Of a DNA stretch of 64,000 bases, positions 1 through 14,843 are shown one piece after another. How positions within the stretch are numbered: the first letter of the stretch is position 1; each line of letters starts with the position of its first letter. The notes under the pieces are model-generated. The model had not been told where the DNA came from. It was given only the letters and a program-made list of their open reading frames with translations, and ran no database searches. This DNA comes from Desulfobacterales bacterium (GTDB lineage: Bacteria; Desulfobacterota; Desulfobacteria; Desulfobacterales; UBA5852), in contig CAXXVS010000002.1 of NCBI GenBank assembly GCA_963674755.2, positions 1,280,001-1,344,000 of the forward strand. The letters are read 5' to 3'. The translations under genes were made by a program, and so were the position numbers.

Positions 1-246
1 GTGGTCCTTCGTCGGCAGATTGACAACCGTGACAATTTCGTCGAACTCGCTCTTTTCCCAAACGTGGGGCTTTCCTGGTCGCACTTCGCCGGCTTTGCAT
101 GCCTTTGCGTACTTCTTGAACATTTCCGGGTATCGGTTCTTGAAAGCCAGGGCCACCCCTGCACCCATTACACCAACACAGTTCACCGTATTGATGCGGA
201 TGTCCGCCGGTGTGTCAAAGATATCACCTTGTGTGTAGCGGATCAT
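1..246 (-). CDS. darG: Macrodomain protein, DarG-type antitoxin (N-terminal 82 aa; truncated by window edge)
   Basis: Manual translation from ATG at 246: MIRYTQGDIFDTPADIRINTVNCVGVMGAGVALAFKNRYPEMF...VVNLPTKDH. Has the macrodomain GDIF and NxVGVMGxG motifs and the DarG NxPTK lysine (K80). Starts immediately after the DarT-HD stop (247-249). Confidence 0.9.
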   Translation of the reverse strand, partial: MIRYTQGDIFDTPADIRINTVNCVGVMGAGVALAFKNRYPEMFKKYAKACKAGEVRPGKPHVWEKSEFDEIVTVVNLPTKDH

Positions 247-1632
247 CTATTCCTTGTCCTCCAAATTTTCCAAAGCCCATTCCCGCAGATCGGGCAGACC
301 TGACTTAATTCTTTCGAGCCAACCCGGGTGTGAAGAAATCATCCTGGCCAATCCACCCTCTGGAATAAGGCTCTCAACGTCCGCGCAATTCAAGGCTGCA
401 AGCATATCGAAGTCTTCGGCGCAATCGATCACGTCGAGAAGTTGCTGCTGGTCGCGCCCTTTGCCTATGATATCGCCGATCAAGTCGTGATAAGCAACGA
501 GCAAAATAACCTGTCGAACCTCTTTTTCATCGAGTGTCCCGATATCTTCTGTCAAAATCCTTTGAATCAGTGGTATTGCCCTGGCGGGATGATCCGGGTC
601 GACTCTTTGACGCCCCTGATCGTCTCGTGGGCTGTTACCCTTGCCTATGTCATGAAGATATGCGGCAAATTCGACCAAAACCTTTTCGCGATCGGATAGT
701 TCTTCATAGAGTTCAGATTTTCTCAGCTTATCGACCACGGTTAAGGTATGCGCTCCGACATCCTCACGATGCTCTTGGTTCGCTGTGGGCAGATCGTTGA
801 TGGCATCCAGCTCCGGCAATGCGCAGAAATTGTCATCGAGCTCATCAACAGCGTCCTCAATACTTTCGAAGATTGCCTCATTCGGAGATTCTTCATTCCG
901 AGTCTCCATCACTTCCCTTGCAGCCGCTACATATTGATTTCGGAGAGATATCGGTCCCGTGACGATCGAGACTTTTCCCTGCTCGTAGAAGTTGGTAAAA
1001 TAGAAATATCTCCTCTTATGCCCATCGAATTCAAGAGCGGGAGGCTCTATGTCGGCTTCGTCGTAAATCTCCTTGACCTTTTCCTTAATCATTTTATTCC
1101 ATACAATGATGTGGTCGATCTTCGAGACTTTTAAGCGTTTATAGACCAAAGCCTCAGCCATTCGAGCGTGGCGAGCTTCATCAGACGGACTACCCCATTT
1201 CTTGGAATCGATATTCGCCCAGTCGAGGTTTACGAGATCTGAAGGTTCCGAGTAAAATGTCGGAGGTACGGCAGTATTTGCGGAGGCATTAGTGAAAACG
1301 GCATTAGGCAAAGCCAATACATCAATGGGAACACCGAGATAAAGCAGATAGAGTTGATCAACGTTCTTTGCGTTTACGACCGAAAGAAGCATGGGAGACC
1401 TGGAACAGAAATAGAAAGGTACGTAGTCGTGAACAACGCCGCCGGGTCCAACTGGAACGTCCATAACTGCCCGACGGTCCTGAATACTACTAGAGGCAAT
1501 GGAAATATGGGAAATTCCGCGCCGCTCCTTTTCGTTGTACGACAGTAGCCCGTGCTGCAAAATGTCCGGCAGATTATCCAGATGCGTAAACTGGTAAATA
1601 TGGCGACTATTGTGTTCATCAGGTATCGGCAT
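247..1632 (-). CDS. darT: DarT (DUF4433) DNA ADP-ribosyltransferase fused to a C-terminal HD domain
   Basis: aa ~10-212 carry DarT motifs (FTHLDNL, IQDRR, PGGVVHDYVPFYF, RSPML, RMAE160ALV). aa ~270-461 carry HD motifs (H295, H327-D328 in LHDIGK, H348, H382, D418). Confidence 0.88.
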   Translation of the reverse strand: MPIPDEHNSRHIYQFTHLDNLPDILQHGLLSYNEKERRGISHISIASSSIQDRRAVMDVPVGPGGVVHDYVPFYFCSRSPMLLSVVNAKNVDQLYLLYLGVPIDVLALPNAVFTNASANTAVPPTFYSEPSDLVNLDWANIDSKKWGSPSDEARHARMAEALVYKRLKVSKIDHIIVWNKMIKEKVKEIYDEADIEPPALEFDGHKRRYFYFTNFYEQGKVSIVTGPISLRNQYVAAAREVMETRNEESPNEAIFESIEDAVDELDDNFCALPELDAINDLPTANQEHREDVGAHTLTVVDKLRKSELYEELSDREKVLVEFAAYLHDIGKGNSPRDDQGRQRVDPDHPARAIPLIQRILTEDIGTLDEKEVRQVILLVAYHDLIGDIIGKGRDQQQLLDVIDCAEDFDMLAALNCADVESLIPEGGLARMISSHPGWLERIKSGLPDLREWALENLEDKE

Positions 1633-1635
1633 ATC

Positions 1636-4600
1636 TCAGCCCTCCTCCGCCTGCAAAATATCCTGCGGCCCGACATGGTAATGCTCTATCTTGACGATGG
1701 GTTTCCATCCAAGGCGGGCAGGATTACGAATGATATGCAATTCCGGATTAGTGGCGCAGTTGAAGACGACATAGAGCCAGAAGTCACCCTGGAGCCGTGC
1801 AGCGGTCTGGAATTCGTTGGTCGTAAGAGCCACCTCACCGATGTGAGAGCGGCCTTTGACTTCGATGAATCGCACTTCGACAGAGGTCTGTTGGTCTTCG
1901 GAATGGGGCCGACGTGAGATGAGGTCGAAGCCACGATTCTCACTTTCGACGCTCTGCACCTTCCATCCGCGGGCCTCTTCGTGGGCAATGACGGCTTCGA
2001 CGGCAATACGCTCGATTTCTGGATCGCTTACCATGGGCTTTATGTCGGGAGCCTCACGGTCTGGGTGCGGCAATACCCAGGCAGAGGCGAAATGGTGAAT
2101 GTTACTGATAGTGCATTCACGCTCCTGGAGCAGCTCAGCCCGACGGGTTTCGAGACGATTATTCAGTTCATCGAGACGGTCCTCAGTCATCTTGAGACGC
2201 CCCTCAAGACCGATCTCGTTGGTACCCGCCTCTTTCTGGTTCATCAATTCGGCGAATTGGCACTGCACCTTGTCTATGACCGCGTTGAGACTGATTTCCA
2301 TGTGTTCGGAAATCCTTCGCGTTTCCTGCTCACGGCGACCTATTTCCGCTCTCAGTAGGGGCTGCAAGGCTTGCTCATGGAGAGCAATTTCTAGAGCGGT
2401 AGCGTCAGGTGGTGTCAACCCCGCTGGGATTTCGGTGCCTTTGGGCGCAAGAGACAGGTCAAGAAAAATGGTCGGTTGCTTGACCATCATACGACCGTTG
2501 ACGTCAGTCTGTACGGCAAACAGGCGCTTGTGAAGCACATTGGCCCGCCCATCCCGCACCTCCGCTGAGAAAACGTCCAGATGCGCGGGGTTTGATGCGT
2601 GCAAATCGTAGAATACAGCGCCGCGTGAATGGCAATCTCTCACATCGCGCTCAATAAAAACGCGGATGCACTCAAACAATGGATGGCCGGGTGTCACCCA
2701 CTCGAGGGTTGGATCTTCTTGAAGCTCCTCTTTGTCAAAGACGATGTGCTTGTATTCTCTGCCCAGGCGGCCGAATTGTGGCTCGAGTTCATTGGCAAGC
2801 GGCATCAGATTGCGGGGCAGACGCCCGATGCGGTAAACGTGCCGGTTCTGCTGCTGTGCTTTGGGTGAAACGCCGGCCAGGGGTGCGGCTCCAAGAAAAA
2901 AACCCTCAATGACCTCCGGCACAAGACGGCGCTCTTTGGCCTCTTCGGACTTTCCGACAATGGCCGATAGGTTCAGGCTTCGTTTGGCCAGTCCCTCCAG
3001 CGTGGATTCCGTGATCTCGCGCAAGCGTTCGGTATCCACCTGTTCAATGATGCGTGATTTGATGAGTTCCTCGGTCATCTGGTTGTGCGCATACATGTCC
3101 CGGAGCATCCGCTCGATTTGGTTGGCAGGAAAGACGTCGCCAAGGACATTGAAGACCTTACCTGTGCGGTTCGGGTCCAGATCGGCTTCGATCTTATCAA
3201 TCCGCTCAAAGAGCTTTTCGAAAACCCGGCCTTCACGGGTGTTCGTCGCCACGAAGTTTTGGATATAGCAATCCTTTTCCTGACCGTAGCGATGGATACG
3301 CCCCATACGCTGCTCGAGTCGATTCGGGTTCCACGGGATGTCGTAGTTGATCATGTACCAGCAGAATTGAAGGTTGATGCCCTCACCGGCAGCTTCTGTG
3401 GCCACAAGAATCTGGCAATCCTCCCTGAACTCTCTTTCTGCATAGATACGGGTCCCAGGGGTGTTCCGGTCGCCGATCTTCATACCACCATGGATTTGCG
3501 TTGCGTTGAACCCCCATTCGCGTAATTTCCCGAGAGGACGCCCGTCGTGGCCGTCGGCCACGAGATAGTCCAGTGTGTCTTTATGTTCGGTAAATATGAG
3601 CAGCTTCATTCGAGGGTCATCAAAGAAATTCTCGTCGGTCAGGAAGGATTTCAGCCGAACGAGTTTTGACTCCACTTCCCATTTTTCCAGCGCACACGCC
3701 TTCTCGACCAGGTTTTCGAGTTCAACGATATCATCGCGAAGGGCTTGGGGGTCGATGGAAATGACGGCTGCTTCAGCGGCTTCCAGAACGGATTGCTGCA
3801 TGTCCTCGGGCAGATCTTCAAAATCGTCCGGTATTTTTTTATCAATTTGTTTTTGCCGGTATTCTTCAGGATTCTCAAGAATCCAGCGACGCTTCTGTAT
3901 CATTCGTTCCAGGGTGCGCCGGACCGCATAAATGCTCGATGCGAAACGCCTTTGAAGCATGGCCATTGTAAACCCGACGGCCCTGGCTGCCGCCGTGTTC
4001 TGTTCCGACGCACGAATGGACTGGTCTTCAACATATTGGGTTAACGCATCGTAGAAATCCAGTTCCTCATCGTCTATTTCGAATCCGGCAGTGTGGACAA
4101 TCCGCTTGGTGAACAGGCTCTTTGATTTTCCAGTTTTTTGATCAGGGAAAGTGACCAGCGCTTCCTTGACGCGGCGCAAATAAAAAGGCGCCTCATTACG
4201 TTCCATAGCGAGATGTATGCTCTTTACGTCGGCATATACATCAGGATCGAGCAGCCGCAGGAATAATGAGAAGTTCTTGGGATCGCCTTTGTGCGGTGTC
4301 GCAGTCATTAAAAGGTAATGGTCCGTCATTCTCGACAACGACTCCCCCAATTGATATGCCAGCGTCTTTTTTTCCTCCCCATAGGCACTCATTTTGTGTG
4401 CTTCATCGACAATCACCAGATCCCAGTGGCTGCGCATCAAACTGTCCTTTGCATCCTCTATTCGGGACACCCAGGAAACGGATGTGATCACCTGGTCTAT
4501 ATCCTGCCAGGGATTTGCACCGTAATTGGCTCGAAGCAAGTCGCTCCGGATCACTGTGAAGTCCTCACGGAAACGGTCTTTGAGTTCACGCTGCCACTGA

Positions 4601-5085
4601 AAGGAAAGATTGGCGGGGGTGACGATCAGCACACGGCGAATCAGACCACGGACTTTCAATTCTTTGACAAGTAATCCTGCCATGATGGTTTTTCCGGCAC
4701 CGGGATCATCGGCGAGCAGAAACCGGATACGCGGGAGTTTGAGAAAGTAATCATAAACGGCTTCAAGCTGGTGCGGCAAGGGGTCTACGCGAGCGATGGA
4801 AAGACTGAAGTAGGGGTCATACTCATATGCCAGGCCTAAACGAATAGATTCAATCCCAAGCCGGAAACGCTCCGAATCGCCATCGTATGGCTTTGAATCC
4901 GGCGAAACTTCGAGTGTCGCTATCTGTTCCGGGGACAGGACGGGCTGATGAACTTTGCCTGAATCCAGCCCTTCCGCAATAACTTTAACCGAGCTTCCCA
5001 TTGGAACAACGGCAATGATTTTAACGGGTTCAGGGAACATTGGCCCGTATGCGATGGCATTTGGTTTGAGATGTTCGAGATTCAT
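1636..5085 (-). CDS. SNF2-family helicase with C-terminal DUF3883 (PD-(D/E)xK-like) domain
   Basis: LLADDPGAGKT, DEAH, TATP, ATEAAGEGINLQ, QRMGRIHRYGQ; C-terminal RGFDLIS...RFIEVKGR...LTTNE. Confidence 0.92.
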   Translation of the reverse strand: MNLEHLKPNAIAYGPMFPEPVKIIAVVPMGSSVKVIAEGLDSGKVHQPVLSPEQIATLEVSPDSKPYDGDSERFRLGIESIRLGLAYEYDPYFSLSIARVDPLPHQLEAVYDYFLKLPRIRFLLADDPGAGKTIMAGLLVKELKVRGLIRRVLIVTPANLSFQWQRELKDRFREDFTVIRSDLLRANYGANPWQDIDQVITSVSWVSRIEDAKDSLMRSHWDLVIVDEAHKMSAYGEEKKTLAYQLGESLSRMTDHYLLMTATPHKGDPKNFSLFLRLLDPDVYADVKSIHLAMERNEAPFYLRRVKEALVTFPDQKTGKSKSLFTKRIVHTAGFEIDDEELDFYDALTQYVEDQSIRASEQNTAAARAVGFTMAMLQRRFASSIYAVRRTLERMIQKRRWILENPEEYRQKQIDKKIPDDFEDLPEDMQQSVLEAAEAAVISIDPQALRDDIVELENLVEKACALEKWEVESKLVRLKSFLTDENFFDDPRMKLLIFTEHKDTLDYLVADGHDGRPLGKLREWGFNATQIHGGMKIGDRNTPGTRIYAEREFREDCQILVATEAAGEGINLQFCWYMINYDIPWNPNRLEQRMGRIHRYGQEKDCYIQNFVATNTREGRVFEKLFERIDKIEADLDPNRTGKVFNVLGDVFPANQIERMLRDMYAHNQMTEELIKSRIIEQVDTERLREITESTLEGLAKRSLNLSAIVGKSEEAKERRLVPEVIEGFFLGAAPLAGVSPKAQQQNRHVYRIGRLPRNLMPLANELEPQFGRLGREYKHIVFDKEELQEDPTLEWVTPGHPLFECIRVFIERDVRDCHSRGAVFYDLHASNPAHLDVFSAEVRDGRANVLHKRLFAVQTDVNGRMMVKQPTIFLDLSLAPKGTEIPAGLTPPDATALEIALHEQALQPLLRAEIGRREQETRRISEHMEISLNAVIDKVQCQFAELMNQKEAGTNEIGLEGRLKMTEDRLDELNNRLETRRAELLQERECTISNIHHFASAWVLPHPDREAPDIKPMVSDPEIERIAVEAVIAHEEARGWKVQSVESENRGFDLISRRPHSEDQQTSVEVRFIEVKGRSHIGEVALTTNEFQTAARLQGDFWLYVVFNCATNPELHIIRNPARLGWKPIVKIEHYHVGPQDILQAEEG

Positions 5086-5740: not shown

Positions 5741-6172
5741 TTAACCCCTGGTTATCGAACTAATCAATTCGATAGCCTTCTGGTATTTCGCAAGGCGCTC
5801 GTAATCCTCTTCCGTCGGATGGGAGATGCGTGACAGGTCGCTGTTGTCCTCCAGGTCGGCAAGCTTCACGCGCCTACCGATTGGATTGAGCGTCGCCCGC
5901 AGCACGAATTCCGTGTAGGACTCACCGGTTCGCATGGTGACGGCATCGACCGCATCGACAACCGCTTCCGAGAAACCTTCGTTTCTGAGATCCTCGAGCG
6001 TAATGTCGCTGTCCTCGACCACGTCGTGGAGAACCGCAGCGATCCGCTCCTCGGTGGTTTCCTGCTTCAACATCACGCGAAGGGGATGGAGGATATAGGG
6101 CGCACCGGCCTTGTCCACTTTTCCCGTATACGCCTTCGCGGCAATTGCAATTGCATGTTCAAGCGTACTGAT
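5741..6172 (-). CDS. Small HD-domain phosphohydrolase (RelA/SpoT-hydrolase/Mesh1-like); ATC at the expected start position
   Basis: DKAGAPYILHPLRV, AAVLHDVVED, VKLADLEDN. The frame extends 18 codons upstream of the GTG at 6118 (ISTLEHAIAIAAKAYTGK) to ATC at 6172; in-frame TAA at 6190-6188. Confidence 0.8.
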   Translation of the reverse strand: MSTLEHAIAIAAKAYTGKVDKAGAPYILHPLRVMLKQETTEERIAAVLHDVVEDSDITLEDLRNEGFSEAVVDAVDAVTMRTGESYTEFVLRATLNPIGRRVKLADLEDNSDLSRISHPTEEDYERLAKYQKAIELISSITRG

Positions 6173-6208: not shown

Positions 6209-7186
6209 TCAGTTCATCAGCGGAGCCATAAGTCTCGGGATTTTTTCACGCCAGTCAAGCTGTTCCTGAACATCCCGCCGTTCCTTGGCCAACCAGGCGA
6301 GAATCTGACTCAAATCGAAAAGGTTGCCACAGCGCTCGGGCGTCCCCGACACCTGGTTCACAGGTTCCATCGGGATGGAAGTCGGTTCGTTTCCCTTGTA
6401 GGGTCCAGCCACCTCGGCATCCGATCCGTGGCAGGCGATATGGTATGCGCGGGCTGCCGCTTTGAAGCCCCACCCTGCTTTCAAGTCTTTGTTGATCCAA
6501 GGAACCAGTCTGCTGGCTGAGACCTTGGTAGTTCGCCATCGCTCGAAATTATTTTTCTCACTTTCAGCTTCCTCGAGGCCTCCCGAGAGGATTTTCCCCA
6601 CTTCTTCAATAGGGGGCTCGCCGATGTGACGGCGGCGCAGGTCGGATCTGGTGACCCCGATGACCATGCCATTGCTGCACACGAAGCGAAACCACCCCAT
6701 GAGGGCACGAAACCGCGTGCTGCCATCTACCGAATTGATGCACTCGAGCCGGAGCGCCATCGGATGGCCGTCGCCCGGGTCGAAAATAAATTTTTCCGGT
6801 AAATAGAGGCTCAGATGCATCCGCTCGCCGTACTCCGTGATCTCGATTTCCGCTCGGACATCAGCGGGATCGACACTGACGCTTTCAAGCGATCTTTCGA
6901 CGATATTCAAAGCAGCCTTGTGAGGCACGAGCGTGTAGTCTTTTGACACCACGCCCACGGGGATCAAGTTACCGTCGCCCTGGAAAGGGCGCCTGACAAT
7001 CGTATCGAATCGCGCATTCAAGCAAGTGCGCTCGCCTCCCGGTTGCTCCAGGCTGAAGCTGCGACGTTCAAAATCGGGGATGTGGGCGCGGACATCGGCC
7101 AGCGAACCCTGGTGGAAAGCCACGGGAGAGCTGAACCATTTCGGGCGTGGGTCTGAATCTGAAACCTGTACCTGTGGAATTGCCAT
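6209..7186 (-). CDS. DUF932/DUF945-family protein
   Basis: GVVSKDYTLVPH, INSVDGS and FRFVCSNGMVIG motifs typical of this mobile-element family. Confidence 0.8.
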   Translation of the reverse strand: MAIPQVQVSDSDPRPKWFSSPVAFHQGSLADVRAHIPDFERRSFSLEQPGGERTCLNARFDTIVRRPFQGDGNLIPVGVVSKDYTLVPHKAALNIVERSLESVSVDPADVRAEIEITEYGERMHLSLYLPEKFIFDPGDGHPMALRLECINSVDGSTRFRALMGWFRFVCSNGMVIGVTRSDLRRRHIGEPPIEEVGKILSGGLEEAESEKNNFERWRTTKVSASRLVPWINKDLKAGWGFKAAARAYHIACHGSDAEVAGPYKGNEPTSIPMEPVNQVSGTPERCGNLFDLSQILAWLAKERRDVQEQLDWREKIPRLMAPLMN

Positions 7187-7314: not shown

Positions 7315-7881
7315 TCAAAGCTCGTTGGCATACAGGCTCTTTACTTCATCGGGTTGGATGCACAAATAGCGCAGCGTGATCGACTGATTGCTGTGGTTGA
7401 AGGCCTCTGTCAATTCCGGAAGGCCGGCGCCGAATCGCACCCGCTGATGGTACCCCCAGGTTTTGCGCAGGCTGTGACTGCCGTAGTTGCCCGGCAGCCT
7501 TATGGCGGCGCACCATTGCTTGATCATTTTGCGCAAATAATCCCGCGTAAGGGGCTTTTCGGAGCGTCCCACGAACAGGTAGTCATCATCAGATGCTTCT
7601 GCGCGAGTGGCCAGCAGCTTCTGTATGGCCTCCACCGCAGCGCGGTTCCAGGTTATTCGTCGACACTTTTTGGTTTTTTGCTCCCGAATTTCAAAATCTT
7701 GCATTGGCTTTATATTGCGCACTTCACCCACTTTGAGCGATAGCAGATCCGAGCCGCGTAAGCTGGTGTTGATGCCGACAACGAAAAGAGCGAAGTTACG
7801 AGGATTGCCGGCTATCATCGTTTTTATCGCTTTGATGTCTTTGACTTGGCGGATAGGCTCAACTTTATATGTTTCACTCAA
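7315..7881 (-). CDS. Small tyrosine recombinase (catalytic domain only)
   Basis: VEPIR, GINTSLRGSDLLSLK, GSHSLRKTWGYH, FNHS, TLRYL. Likely TTG start at 7881 after an AGGAG RBS (ORF track starts at 7926). Confidence 0.88.
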   Translation of the reverse strand: MSETYKVEPIRQVKDIKAIKTMIAGNPRNFALFVVGINTSLRGSDLLSLKVGEVRNIKPMQDFEIREQKTKKCRRITWNRAAVEAIQKLLATRAEASDDDYLFVGRSEKPLTRDYLRKMIKQWCAAIRLPGNYGSHSLRKTWGYHQRVRFGAGLPELTEAFNHSNQSITLRYLCIQPDEVKSLYANEL

Positions 7882-9030
7882 ATTACCGCTCCTATGATGG
7901 TTTTCTATCACTTCAGTGAATAACAAAACCTCTATGTATTCTGTTTTTTAATTGTTTTTACTAGTTTTTGCAGACTTTTACAAGAATATTTTTACTATCG
8001 GCTGAGATTTCGCCTCTCCATTTTTAGTCTACGACCGTCTAACGATCCTCCCTCCCCTCCCATAGGCATATGGCCGCCAGGGTCCAGCAAACAACTGGAC
8101 GAGTCCATGATGACGTACTGTTGAGAATCAAAAATATTGTTAAGTATTTCAATAAGAAGTCCAATAGGTCCAGTGTCTTCACTTCTATAGTTTAAATTTT
8201 TAGAAAAAATCAAAATGTAAAAGATATAAAGATAGGGCCGGAAGAGGTGGACTTCATAGACGCCAATCGCTCAACATCATGCTATTATGGCGAATCCGTC
8301 CAGCGGCCAGCCTGCCCGAACAGCCACCCTCGTCCAGGCAAAGCTGTAAATAGGAGATTTTTTTGGCGCTTTACCAGTGGCCAAATTGCTTCCTTGCCAG
8401 GCCGCTCTATTCTGAAAGCGCCTTAAACAATGACTTCAATGCGCTCGATAAAGATTTCTACGACGACTGCCAGCGGTACAGGCTTCTCAAAGTAGTCCCG
8501 CCTGACCCCCAACTTGGAGGAGCAGCGGGGGTGAGAGGGCGATAGGGATAACCTCCTATGTTTATTGGTTTTGCGGAATGGGTACTGAAATGATGCGCAG
8601 TTGCCACTGAATCTATCGGCGGCGTTTTGAAACTGATAGATCACCTTTCCAAATAAAAATTTCTAACCGAGTTTCTAAATCCGCTTTTTATTCTCTATGT
8701 ATTTTTTTACAGACTATTTGACCACCTTGAACGTCAAAAATAATGACAAAATCATCGCGAACCAGCGTCATTGAAGGATTTAATCAAAATCTTCATAGTC
8801 TGCCATTCTTCAAAAGGCAGACAAACAGGCATTCGACTTTTCGGAGTGGTTTTAAAAATCTGATGCCTCGACCGCCGGCTTCGATCACCTGGCCGGTTAC
8901 CAAACTTCATCCCCACTTAAGCCGGCCATAATAGTAGTGCCCGCCTGCGCTACCCTGCAGCTTCAAAGAATACTGCCATGCATCCGGCTCCAGAGGGATG
9001 GTTGGTTAGGATGAACTCCGGGAACAGAAA

Positions 9031-10794: not shown

Positions 10795-13383
10795 TTGAGC
10801 GATTCCGATATCGAAAAGGTGTACAACGTTTTTTTCAGGCCTGGTGAAGTGGTCGAACTGCGAGCTCTCGGTTGCGGCGGAAAGAACAATGCCTGGGAGG
10901 GCTTTGCCCGCCATGACACCGGAGTCTTCGGCTATTGTAACAACGCTAAGGATTTCGTCCGATCAGCCGAGGCTTTGGATCGCCTCGCTGAACCTCCCTA
11001 TGGCATCTATTTCACAATCAATCCACCCAAGCCCGCAGTGATGGCCCGAGCTCATAATCGTCTGGTAGCTGTGAACAAAAAACGCCCCTGCACCTCGGAC
11101 AAGGAAATTCGCAAGGTCCGATGGCTACCCATCGATATTGACGTGAGCAACGCAGTGCGGCCTACGGGTGTTAGTTCAAGTGCAGAAGAGTTGAAACTAA
11201 CAAGATTGGCTGGTATCGAGATAGTGAAATTTCTTTCTGAAAAAATGGGCTTCCCGGATCCGATCAAGGGGATGAGCGGCAATGGTCACCATGTGATCTA
11301 CCGCATTCCTGAAATGGTTCCCGAGGAAGCCAAACCCCTTCTCAAAAAATGCCTGGCCGCTCTTCAGGACCAACTAACCGTCGAACATGTGGAAGTGGAT
11401 CAGAAGGTTTTCAACCCGTCCAGGATATGGAAGTTATACGGCACCACAGCCCGCAAAGGCGATCACACAAACGACCGTCCCCATCGCCAAAGCCGTTTAT
11501 TCAAAGATGCTCCGAAGAGCTTTGATGAAGTCCCTGAGGTACCGCTGAACAAACTGATAGCCCTTGCTGAGTTAGCTCACAAAGATGACCAGTCCAAGGC
11601 TAGTCACTCTCTTCCAGCGAAGTCCCCCGTTAATCACATCGAAAAATCATACTCACGGAACTTTGGAAAGGTCCTCCTGGGGCAATACCTAACTGCCTAT
11701 GGAGTCAATTATCGCGTGGAGCAGAAAAACGGATCGGATTGGTACTTCTTAGACGATGGTTGCCCTTTTGATCCACAGCACAAGGGCAAGGATGCCGCTA
11801 TCATTCAAAACCAGGATGGCAAGATTACCTACTATTGTTTCCACAATTCATGCCACGGGCTCACTTGGAAGGATGTACGCCAGGTCATTAGTGGGAACGA
11901 CAAGATCGTTGAATTTTGTGAGAACTATGATCCGGACTGGACGCCAACCAGGTCTTGCGGCACAGGATTATTGACTCATGTTAAGGTCCTATCCCCCGGG
12001 CCGCCGGGAAAAGGCAGCCTCATCGTGGAAATCCTAAACGCTCCGGAAACAGTTCCGCCCCCCGACGAAATCGATCCGTATGAATTTTTCGAAAGACGCG
12101 GCAAGCGCCATAAATTCTGTGTACATAAATTGGTCGCCTACCTGGCTACACTGTTACGGCCGATCGTATGCACGAGCGGAAAATTTTATCGCTATGATAA
12201 CGGATTCTGGCAGGAGATGGCCGATGCTGATGTTAGGCAGATGATCGTTGCGGCATTGGGAGAGCGGGTCCAGGCCAACTGGGTTAAGGAAGCTCTTACA
12301 CTTTTAAAGGATCGTGTTCGTCGCCAAGATGAGCACTGGCAGCCTTATCCGGAATTGGTCAATGTACGAAATGGCATGGTGAATATTGAGGATGGTAGCC
12401 TTCTGCCTCATGACCCTAAATATTGCAGTCGTGTCCAATTGCCCATCGACTATGACCCCAACGCCACTGCTCCCAGGTTGGAGCAGTTTTTTACCGAAAT
12501 TTTCCCTGAAAACGGGGAGGACGGCACGTGGCAAACCGGCGGTATGCTGAAAATGATGATGTTGCAGGAGTTCATGGGTTACTGCCTAATGGAGACCTGC
12601 AAATACGAAAGATGCATGTTTATGTATGGTCAAGGTGCAAACGGTAAGAGTACTGTACTGAATGTGATGGAGAAGATGTTGGGAGCAGACCACTGCAGTG
12701 ATATGAACATTGATGATCTGGCCAACCGTTTCAATATCCCCTACCTGCAGAACAAACTAATCAACAAGTCACCCGAAGCCCTATCAAAGGAACAGTCCGC
12801 AGTACAGAAGCTAAAAAGCTTTATCTCCGGGGATCGGGTGGTAGGAGAGTGGAAACACGGCGAACAAGTGAGCTTCGCTCCACGGACAAAATTCTTGTTT
12901 GCTATGAATCTGCCCCCGAATATTCACGACAAGTCCCACGGCTTCAACCGCAAGATTCTGGTGTTAAACTTCAACCGAGTTTTTGAAGAACACGAGATGG
13001 ACCGTGACCTGGCCGTCAAATTGGAAAACGAATTGGACGGGATCTTTGTTTTTGCACTGGAAGGCGCTATGCGCCTGCGCCAGCAAGATGGCTTTACTGA
13101 TGGGGGTATCATTCACCAAGACAAGGACATGTTCATGGGGCAGCTCAACAACGTTCTCTTGTTCGTTTCAGAAGAATGCGAAATCGAAGACGGCGCCCGA
13201 ATTCCCAGCGACGACTTGTTTGAGGCTTATAAAGCATGGTGCGACAAAAACGGTCTCCGAGCCTTGGGGGCCCCTAAGTTCCAAGAGCAGCTACTTCACA
13301 AGTATAAGATCAAGAAGGTTAAGGGATGTTGGTCTGAGCGCCGCCGCATGACCTTTAATGGCATTCGCCTTATCAAGCACTGA
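10795..13383 (+). CDS. Primase-helicase, phage/plasmid P4/D5 family (AEP-like primase, Zn finger, SF3 helicase)
   Basis: TTG start after GAGGAGG; WLPIDID and MSGNGHH primase motifs; CPF...H...CFHNSC; D5_N-like VNVRNGMVNI...PHDP; Walker A GQGANGKST. Confidence 0.9.
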   Translation: MSDSDIEKVYNVFFRPGEVVELRALGCGGKNNAWEGFARHDTGVFGYCNNAKDFVRSAEALDRLAEPPYGIYFTINPPKPAVMARAHNRLVAVNKKRPCTSDKEIRKVRWLPIDIDVSNAVRPTGVSSSAEELKLTRLAGIEIVKFLSEKMGFPDPIKGMSGNGHHVIYRIPEMVPEEAKPLLKKCLAALQDQLTVEHVEVDQKVFNPSRIWKLYGTTARKGDHTNDRPHRQSRLFKDAPKSFDEVPEVPLNKLIALAELAHKDDQSKASHSLPAKSPVNHIEKSYSRNFGKVLLGQYLTAYGVNYRVEQKNGSDWYFLDDGCPFDPQHKGKDAAIIQNQDGKITYYCFHNSCHGLTWKDVRQVISGNDKIVEFCENYDPDWTPTRSCGTGLLTHVKVLSPGPPGKGSLIVEILNAPETVPPPDEIDPYEFFERRGKRHKFCVHKLVAYLATLLRPIVCTSGKFYRYDNGFWQEMADADVRQMIVAALGERVQANWVKEALTLLKDRVRRQDEHWQPYPELVNVRNGMVNIEDGSLLPHDPKYCSRVQLPIDYDPNATAPRLEQFFTEIFPENGEDGTWQTGGMLKMMMLQEFMGYCLMETCKYERCMFMYGQGANGKSTVLNVMEKMLGADHCSDMNIDDLANRFNIPYLQNKLINKSPEALSKEQSAVQKLKSFISGDRVVGEWKHGEQVSFAPRTKFLFAMNLPPNIHDKSHGFNRKILVLNFNRVFEEHEMDRDLAVKLENELDGIFVFALEGAMRLRQQDGFTDGGIIHQDKDMFMGQLNNVLLFVSEECEIEDGARIPSDDLFEAYKAWCDKNGLRALGAPKFQEQLLHKYKIKKVKGCWSERRRMTFNGIRLIKH

Positions 13384-14626: not shown

Positions 14627-14647
14627 TTCTGTAAGCTTAAGGGTGGT

Positions 14648-14671
14648 TTCGATTCCCATGCACTTCCGCCA
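14648..14671 (+). other. att site: duplicated 3' end of tRNA-Sec (selC); not a full tRNA
   Basis: TTCGATTCCCATGCACTTCCGCCA = T-loop, 3' acceptor strand and GCCA end typical of tRNA-Sec. No 5' half or TCA anticodon arm upstream (integrase ends at 14626). Confidence 0.85.
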
Positions 14672-14843
14672 TTTTTTATCTTTCTGGAACCATTCGGTAT
14701 TTCGACTCCCCCTGCCCTTTAACCTTCTCAAACCCGCTTCACGAAATCCGGTCCCTACATCTTTCGGTCATCATACAGTCATCTATCCCAAAAGCCGACC
14801 GAAGTTAGCATATGTAACCCGGGATAACAAGAAACCCGGTCGA

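Follow-up and report, generated by a model that had tools for sequence, protein, structure and literature searches.

A DarT toxin fused to an HD domain and paired with a macrodomain–DprA-like partner: a widespread, apparently undescribed branch of DarTG-type toxin–antitoxin systems

We found that the window (the whole stretch of 64,000 nucleotides that was analysed) carries at its left end a gene encoding a DarT-type ADP-ribosyltransferase (ART) joined to an HD domain. This protein, DarT-HD, is a real and conserved DarTG variant, and it represents a distinct branch of the DarTG toxin–antitoxin family that is widespread and apparently not yet described. Judging from homology, its ART is very probably an active DNA ADP-ribosyltransferase, whose mark the macrodomain of the partner protein erases, and its HD an active dinuclear phosphohydrolase, with an anti-phage role for the pair. 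As for what the HD acts on, we give a probability of roughly 0.4 to DNA-linked ADP-ribose, with evasion of phage macrodomains, T4 AdfM among them, as the benefit. Two features are absent from the original prediction on this DNA, namely a partner that combines a macrodomain with a DprA-like domain, and an S-A-N base-binding loop in the ART. The toxin gene and its parts are located as follows:

247..1632, minus strand (read 1632 to 247): DarT-HD gene (protein P0001), 461 aa in one open frame
1036..1596, minus strand: DarT2-like ADP-ribosyltransferase domain, aa 13-199, with R53/R54, H68, Y74, M81 and E160
877..1035, minus strand: linker, with an invariant TGP (aa 225-227)
250..876, minus strand: HD domain region, aa 253-461, with an extended H...HD...H...H...D motif, of the CCA-enzyme clade

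The gene is preceded by a GGAGGAG ribosome-binding site. The prediction that DarT and HD are fused in a single 461-aa reading frame was borne out by Pfam, which matched DarT (PF14487) at aa 13-199 (E 3.9e-43, 148 bits vs. a cut-off of 22.5) and HD (PF01966) at 24.7 bits vs. a cut-off of 22, and every residue that it had named was found in place (QDRR at 51-54, E160, H295, H327-D328, H348, H382 and D418). There is no stop or frameshift between the halves: a public contig from run X2 spans the whole gene with no other letters and no gaps, and one from run X1, also without indels, covers all but the last ~115 bases; both runs derive from one sample, which is possibly the source of the window itself. 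An assembly artefact was ruled out by the spanning contigs together with 119 near-full-length relatives. A look for RNA data containing the gene listed none, an outcome without bearing on its expression. The C-terminal half models as an HD fold, as had been expected (HD-only model, pLDDT 93, pTM 0.91), and the full-length AlphaFold2 model, made with 30 sequences, reached a pLDDT of 88 and a pTM of 0.85.

The ART half has the fold and the catalytic residues of DarTG2 toxins. Its score against the NCBIfam equivalog NF048013 was just below threshold (149.5 vs. 150), its top Foldseek match was Thermus DarT (7omv, E 2.4e-13), and alignment to that structure placed the DarT2 catalytic set at R54, H68, Y74, M81 and E160 (R51, H65, Y71, M78 and E160 in the Thermus numbering used in passages of PMC9967889). 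Among the best 120 of 884 protein matches, the catalytic residues are kept in 119-120 proteins, R54 in 119 and E160 in all 120. The base-binding loop is different. In DarT2 it reads G-H-A and bears the base-coordinating His119, equivalent to Asn104 in DarT1 (PMC11543638, in part), whereas in DarT-HD it reads S-A-N (S117-A118-N119). His119 falls on S117 in two of three pairwise alignments to solved DarTs, and among 158 full-length proteins this position is Ser in 136 and Ala in 19. The alignment to M. tuberculosis DarT instead sets its Asn on N119, the essentially invariant residue two positions further on (153/158), which may take over the role of His119. Base recognition may thus be altered or merely shifted, and the target of the ART is to this extent uncertain. 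Single-domain DarT relatives mostly have an FTDGHA loop, and short SAN-loop proteins show ragged ends and are apparently truncated.

In a quick maximum-likelihood tree of the ART domain, unrooted and built without a DarT1 outgroup, 32 fused and 34 single-domain rows were split by one branch with an SH-aLRT of 99. DarT-HD stands apart from DarTG2 both in this grouping and in size, its toxin being ~450 aa long with a C-terminal HD as compared to a single domain of ~210 aa. The protein search, in which 7,999 candidates were scored and 884 matched, listed the query and 119 relatives; these at least 119 near-full-length proteins (405-496 aa, 41-88% identity) come from several phyla and, among the matches listed, from Desulfosarcina, Planctomycetota, Bacillus, Brevibacillus, Clostridia, Bacteroidales, Chitinophaga and Pedobacter. 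Named genomes and plasmids added Rhizobium, Neorhizobium, Cyanobium, Sinorhizobium, Agrobacterium and Klebsiella. The distribution is patchy, with DarT-HD in one of 401 genomes of the phylum (at most eight candidates scored per genome) and in one of the 17 of the family. Phage genomes gave CCA-type HDs only and no full DarT-HD match, and one viral contig (L074) has DarT-HD together with its partner. Three DarT-HD proteins (L043:6315-8351, P0291 and P0230) carry N-terminal Sel1 repeats or leucine-rich repeats and are possible sensor fusions. The Sel1-type copy of L043 lies between type III RM genes and adjoins RtcB, with no macrodomain gene seen.

The HD half was predicted to resemble the HD domains of CCA-adding enzymes and GlnD, and this resemblance was recovered in two ways. 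NCBIfam models for CCA (PRK10885) and GlnD matched aa 271-420, both below their cut-offs, and the top structural match of the HD-only model was the tRNA-processing enzyme 3wfo (TM 0.62; VIA Z 17.3, rmsd 2.8 over 178 residues; runner-up Z 11.6). The match is confined to aa 271-420, and no nucleotidyltransferase head domain was found in DarT-HD. All the metal-site residues are present, H295, H327, D328, H348 and H382 in 120/120 and D418 in 119/120 of the best 120 of 884 matches, accompanied by H288, K331, Q342, D383 and R393. This active-site signature is nearest to that of CCA-enzyme HDs (H288, K331, Q342, H348, H382-D383) and then to HD+AAA_33 proteins. DarT-HD shares with these enzymes and with GlnD the fold and the signature, but it has no nucleotidyltransferase or kinase domain, is fused to an ART, and has D347 and R393 as invariants of its own.

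CCA-adding enzymes and HD+AAA_33 proteins, the latter presumably HD-Pnk-like, mainly heal 2'/3' phosphate ends. Their kinship to our HD would fit an action on the nucleic-acid backbone, in which the HD would nick the marked ssDNA as Cas3 does, or strip 2'/3'-phosphate or cyclic-phosphate ends as CCA and HD-Pnk enzymes do, and would thus add a second kind of damage or an end preparation. We regard this as an unlikely reading, which nevertheless has several observations in its favour: the signature itself, 3wfo as best structure, the RtcB gene adjoining the orphan copy of L043, weak PADLOC matches to Cas3-HD (E 1e-4), and the nature of Cas3 HDs as dinuclear ssDNA phosphodiesterases (PMC8177086, in part). 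The Cas3 matches, however, span only aa 287-382, and the Pfam Cas3_HD score is sub-threshold (14.6 vs. 23.1 bits). Moreover, DarT-HD neighbourhoods have no recurrent ligase or kinase gene, and nicks would not be reversed by an antitoxin that erases ADP-ribose only. No Cas3 chain was among the matches listed in two HD fold searches, an outcome that does not argue against a Cas3-type HD.

PMC8177086 (in part) takes the six-residue motif as the mark of a dinuclear site, one example being YqeK, an enzyme that cuts the phosphoanhydride bridge of Ap4A, and describes HD phosphatases of the YfbR/dNTPase type as having an Arg about three residues ahead of the first His. In DarT-HD the corresponding position is V292, and among the best 120 of 884 matches it is Val in 113 and Arg in none. 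Depletion of a nucleotide, one of four functions proposed in the original prediction, is disfavoured by this replacement, and hydrolysis of a small molecule more generally (free ADP-ribose released by the macrodomain, NAD+, or a cyclic or dinucleoside nucleotide) appears to us quite unlikely. It would amount to a second toxic activity or to by-product clearance. Dinuclear HDs do include YqeK and cyclic-dinucleotide phosphodiesterases (PMC8177086, in part), the HD is intact in two proteins with a decayed ART (P0258 and P0259), and a review describes, in one part, a Thoeris variant with a DprA-type SLOG whose other SLOG types bind nucleotide signals. Against this reading stand the missing phosphatase Arg and the lasting fusion itself, which a diffusible substrate does not need; no stand-alone or otherwise fused member was found among the strong matches listed.

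The HD subfamily travels with DarT. When an HD-only profile was searched against 1.84 billion protein cluster representatives, 70 proteins matched at E up to 1e-30. Of the 150 matches listed, 83 were strong; 55 of them had DarT, none had another N-terminal domain, and the remaining 28 had fewer than 120 residues N-terminal of the HD, many of these showing linker or starting within the domain, so that some could be stand-alone. With an HD-only DNA pattern, DarT sequence was found upstream in 52/52 loci, in the same open reading frame in 49. Both profile and pattern were built from fusion proteins and are biased to them. The architecture is also visible in public annotation as ESM Atlas DarT+HD clusters of 101, 125 and 68 members. 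The two active sites are kept together as well, both being intact in 142 of 158 proteins longer than 400 aa. The ART set was kept and the HD set not in 12/158 (2 of them truncated, 7 with a change at H382 and 3 with a clearly degenerate HD, namely P0297, P0300 and P0302); the reverse occurred in 4/158 (1 truncated, 1 changed at H68, and 2 without E160, P0258 and P0259 being the degenerate ones). Mean identity to P0001 is 56% in the ART, 52% in the HD and 34% in the linker, which is the least conserved part.

HD domains can cut phosphoesters and anhydrides, not the base-ribose bond, and the bond most directly supplied by a fused ART is the pyrophosphate of its mark. In the mechanism that we propose, the ART would ADP-ribosylate a base of single-stranded DNA, after which the HD would cut the ADP-ribose at its pyrophosphate, releasing AMP and leaving a phosphoribosyl-base that macrodomains, including phage ones such as T4 AdfM, could not remove. 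The scheme requires that, without infection, either the toxin is kept in check or the macrodomain acts faster than the HD, and the macrodomain partner would erase the mark as long as it is untrimmed. The chemistry has precedents: NUDIX enzymes and ENPP1 cleave the pyrophosphate of ADP-ribose and leave phosphoribose (PMC11543638, PMC11668277 and PMC8883491, each in part), and Legionella SidE combines an ART and a phosphodiesterase (PDE) in one chain that converts ADP-ribose to phosphoribose (PMC11668277 and PMC8883491, in part). A reason to make the mark irreversible is offered by phage T4, whose macrodomain protein tk.4/adfM defeats DarTG2 (PMC13716836, in part).

Among the four ideas of the original prediction (trimming of the adduct, cleavage of the marked DNA, nucleotide depletion and gating of the toxin), trimming fits best, although we hold it tentatively, at somewhat less than even odds. 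It is favoured by the joint retention of both sites in most proteins and by the similar conservation of HD and ART, by an HD subfamily that travels with DarT, by the dinuclear motif of the YqeK type lacking the phosphatase Arg, and by the SidE precedent. Several points speak against it. A fast, ungated HD would defeat its own antitoxin; the nearest HD relatives, CCA and HD+AAA_33 proteins, have the different job of end healing; the coupling is not strict, since some lineages have lost either site; and the SidE PDE is a distant fold match and no close relative (SidE chains appeared among the HD fold matches at Z 8.6, a level graded middling by the tool). SidE also differs in being an ARTC-class, secreted effector that targets ubiquitin, and serves as an analogy only.

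The partner starts with an ATG directly after the DarT-HD stop, and most of it lies to the left of the window:

1..246, minus strand: 5' end of the partner gene
G000:C2:1275978-1280246: whole partner gene, 1422 aa, consisting of a DarG macrodomain, a DprA/ShosA-like domain and an HmaB/DUF1156 methylase

The original prediction had the toxin paired with DarG. This holds for the macrodomain, which, as in DarTG2, is downstream of the toxin and tightly coupled to it; it matches 5m3i and 5m31 at E 1e-53 and 9e-52, and K80 and W83 are invariant in 36/36 rows. It does not hold for the canonical DarG2 C-terminal DarT-binding domain, which was not found in the partner and in whose place there is a degenerate DprA/ShosA-like domain. 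The PADLOC DarG match covers positions 1-152 of 329, i.e. the first ~150 aa only, and across loci 1-152 to 1-174 of 329, the remainder being DprA-like. In 57 loci with a strong HD match, 42 had at least 1,300 nt downstream and were informative; 36 of these 42 have a macrodomain plus DprA-like partner, in 4 the macrodomain is followed by a short tail of ~100 aa, and in 2 no macrodomain is encoded. The DprA-like part was absent from the single-domain DarT loci examined (0/8; L006-L012 and L084). In a plasmid collection, a full-length partner occurs in three records, and the same three, and no others, have full-length DarT-HD. The invariance of K80 and W83 implies that the untrimmed mark must last long enough for erasure.

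The second domain of the partner matches PF02481 with 31 bits vs. 29.6, the DprA structure 3uqz at E 1.3e-7, ShosA (9vzo/8zva) at E 2e-6 and PADLOC PsyrA at E 3.4e-8, and in this it resembles the antitoxins of ShosTA and PsyrTA. It differs from them in being fused to a macrodomain, in serving a toxin that is an ART and not a PRTase, and in the loss of the arginines on which both the ssDNA binding and the antitoxin activity of ShosA depend (PMC12961424, in part): with numbering mapped by a four-residue offset, the R139 column has Arg in 3/36 partners and the R234 column in 0/36. This loss disfavours a ShosA-style role as ssDNA binder and RecA loader. The domain evolves fast (mean identity 29% vs. 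61% for the macrodomain) and looks repurposed and not enzymatic; most likely it would act as a toxin binder or trigger sensor in place of the DarG2 C-terminal domain. A role as LOG-type remover of the phosphoribosyl scar was considered and is not supported, in view of the same 29% vs. 61% and of the position of the sole invariant Glu (45/45), which as read from the sequence follows strand 1 and not strand 3. When the DprA-like part was searched back against 400 genomes, one of which was not scored, the seed locus and a single PRTase-DprA pair were the sole matches, too few for a co-occurrence test. The closest non-DarT match to the domain is found at L083:574-2202, where a PRTase-like gene is accompanied by an intact DprA-like gene; this pair appears ShosTA/PsyrTA-like. 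In another locus (L051:8363-10426) the macro-DprA partner is joined to a nucleotidyltransferase domain (688 aa), which may be a read-through or an assembly join. A subgroup of six loci (L033, L036, L039, L040, L044 and L071) has a ~250-aa partner without the DprA-like part, and toxins that mostly carry an unannotated N-terminal extension of 140-230 aa; in four of them a gene for an LPXTG-type surface protein or homologue comes next.

A partner without the canonical toxin-binding region of DarG2 is also what one might expect if the HD itself restrained or gated the toxin, either as a built-in damper, like writer-eraser fusions such as GlnD, or as a metal- or nucleotide-binding switch packed on the ART. 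The GlnD-type HD matches agree with such a role, the pTM of the full-length model hints at a fixed orientation of the two halves, and two copies whose ART is intact (L043 and L045) show no macrodomain gene in the 4-7 kb downstream of them. Yet an HD unable to break the base-ribose bond would leave a scar, the ART is intact in lineages whose HD is dead, and in the orphan L045 the HD has H382 changed to Asp. We consider gating clearly improbable.

In the literature searched, no description of DarT-HD or of a macro-DprA antitoxin was found, so that the architecture is apparently undescribed, as had been supposed; comparative-genomics papers beyond this set, or their supplements, could list it. 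Two DarTG types have been described (PMC11825919, in part), and a 2026 paper (PMC12945103, in part) still presents ARTs that modify nucleotides, leaving aside PARPs, pierisin and MTX, as mostly single-domain. DarT-HD differs from DarTG2 in three linked respects, toxin architecture, base-binding loop and antitoxin, and annotation pipelines label it as plain DarT. A rather doubtful, wider reading is that it constitutes a third DarTG type, with a mark made in two steps, ADP-ribosylation and HD-catalysed loss of AMP, giving a natural phosphoribosyl-DNA under gating by the repurposed DprA-like domain. Its target base or motif would then possibly be other than that of DarT2, and phosphoribosyl-DNA would be beyond both macrodomain and NADAR erasers, having evolved against the anti-DarT enzymes of phages. 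Trimming of the mark by the HD, if it occurs, would amount to a novel DNA modification and would show directly how bacteria respond to phage macrodomain erasers; editing tools based on DarT (PMC13368585) would gain another kind of DNA lesion. Whatever the HD does, the system is a test case ready for use, with two genes and two clean active-site mutants.

At this locus the pair lies within an Hma system, the DUF499-centred, BREX-related system, as indicated by hmaA and hmaC on its two sides:

1636..5085, minus strand: hmaA, SNF2 helicase with a NOV_C domain (HmaA E 2e-196)
L001:11002-13959, beyond the window: hmaC, DUF499 ATPase (HmaC E 1.5e-114)

The methylase part of the partner matches HmaB at E 5e-132, so HmaA, HmaB and HmaC are all at the locus, in the order hmaA, darT-HD, [macro-DprA-hmaB], hmaC, separated by 3, 0 and 18 nt. 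A Hma-embedded pair is also present in L070. Embedded genes are common in Hma (931/1,485 systems; bioRxiv 10.1101/2024.01.29.577857, in part), and insertion into restriction-type defence operons is shared with DarTG2 (PMC5179494, in part); DarT is mentioned nowhere in the main text of that preprint or of PMC12839542. What sets this locus apart from other Hma systems is the in-frame fusion of the embedded antitoxin to HmaB, an arrangement found in four sequences (here, L070:5560-9741, P0389 and P0390). In close relatives the two are separate; the partner of D. ovata and D. alkanivorans is a protein of 412 aa with no HmaB fusion. A read-through artefact was ruled out by the recurrence in L070, P0389 and P0390 and by a junction-spanning contig. 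Such a fusion would couple control of the toxin to the Hma methylase.

PADLOC-matching genes lie within 2-3 genes of DarT-HD in 19/44 loci, a count that has no background control and comes from a scan that took 108 of 116 neighbour ORFs; they include Lamassu, Kiwa, Dnd, type III RM and NucC. The anti-phage role is favoured by the Hma embedding, by these defence neighbours and by the patchy distribution; it is likely, and rests on genomic context without a control.

The locus itself is carried by what is likely an integrated, low-GC element of ~68.5 kb, with a GC content of mostly 35-55% vs. 57-58%, whose right end would be a repeat of the 3' end of tRNA-Sec (the tRNA gene being at C2:1226048-1226145):

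14641..14672, plus strand: 32-bp repeat (31/32) of the tRNA-Sec 3' end
7315-7926: integrase
10795-13383: D5-like primase
6209-7186: DUF932 gene

Past hmaC, L001:7953-10906 on the minus strand holds genes for a ResIII/DEAD helicase (648 aa) and a DUF4062 protein (254 aa), possibly further defence genes. Upstream of hmaA, a stand-alone RelA/SpoT-type HD gene is found at 5741-6118 on the minus strand (125 aa, HD_4 E 4.6e-4).
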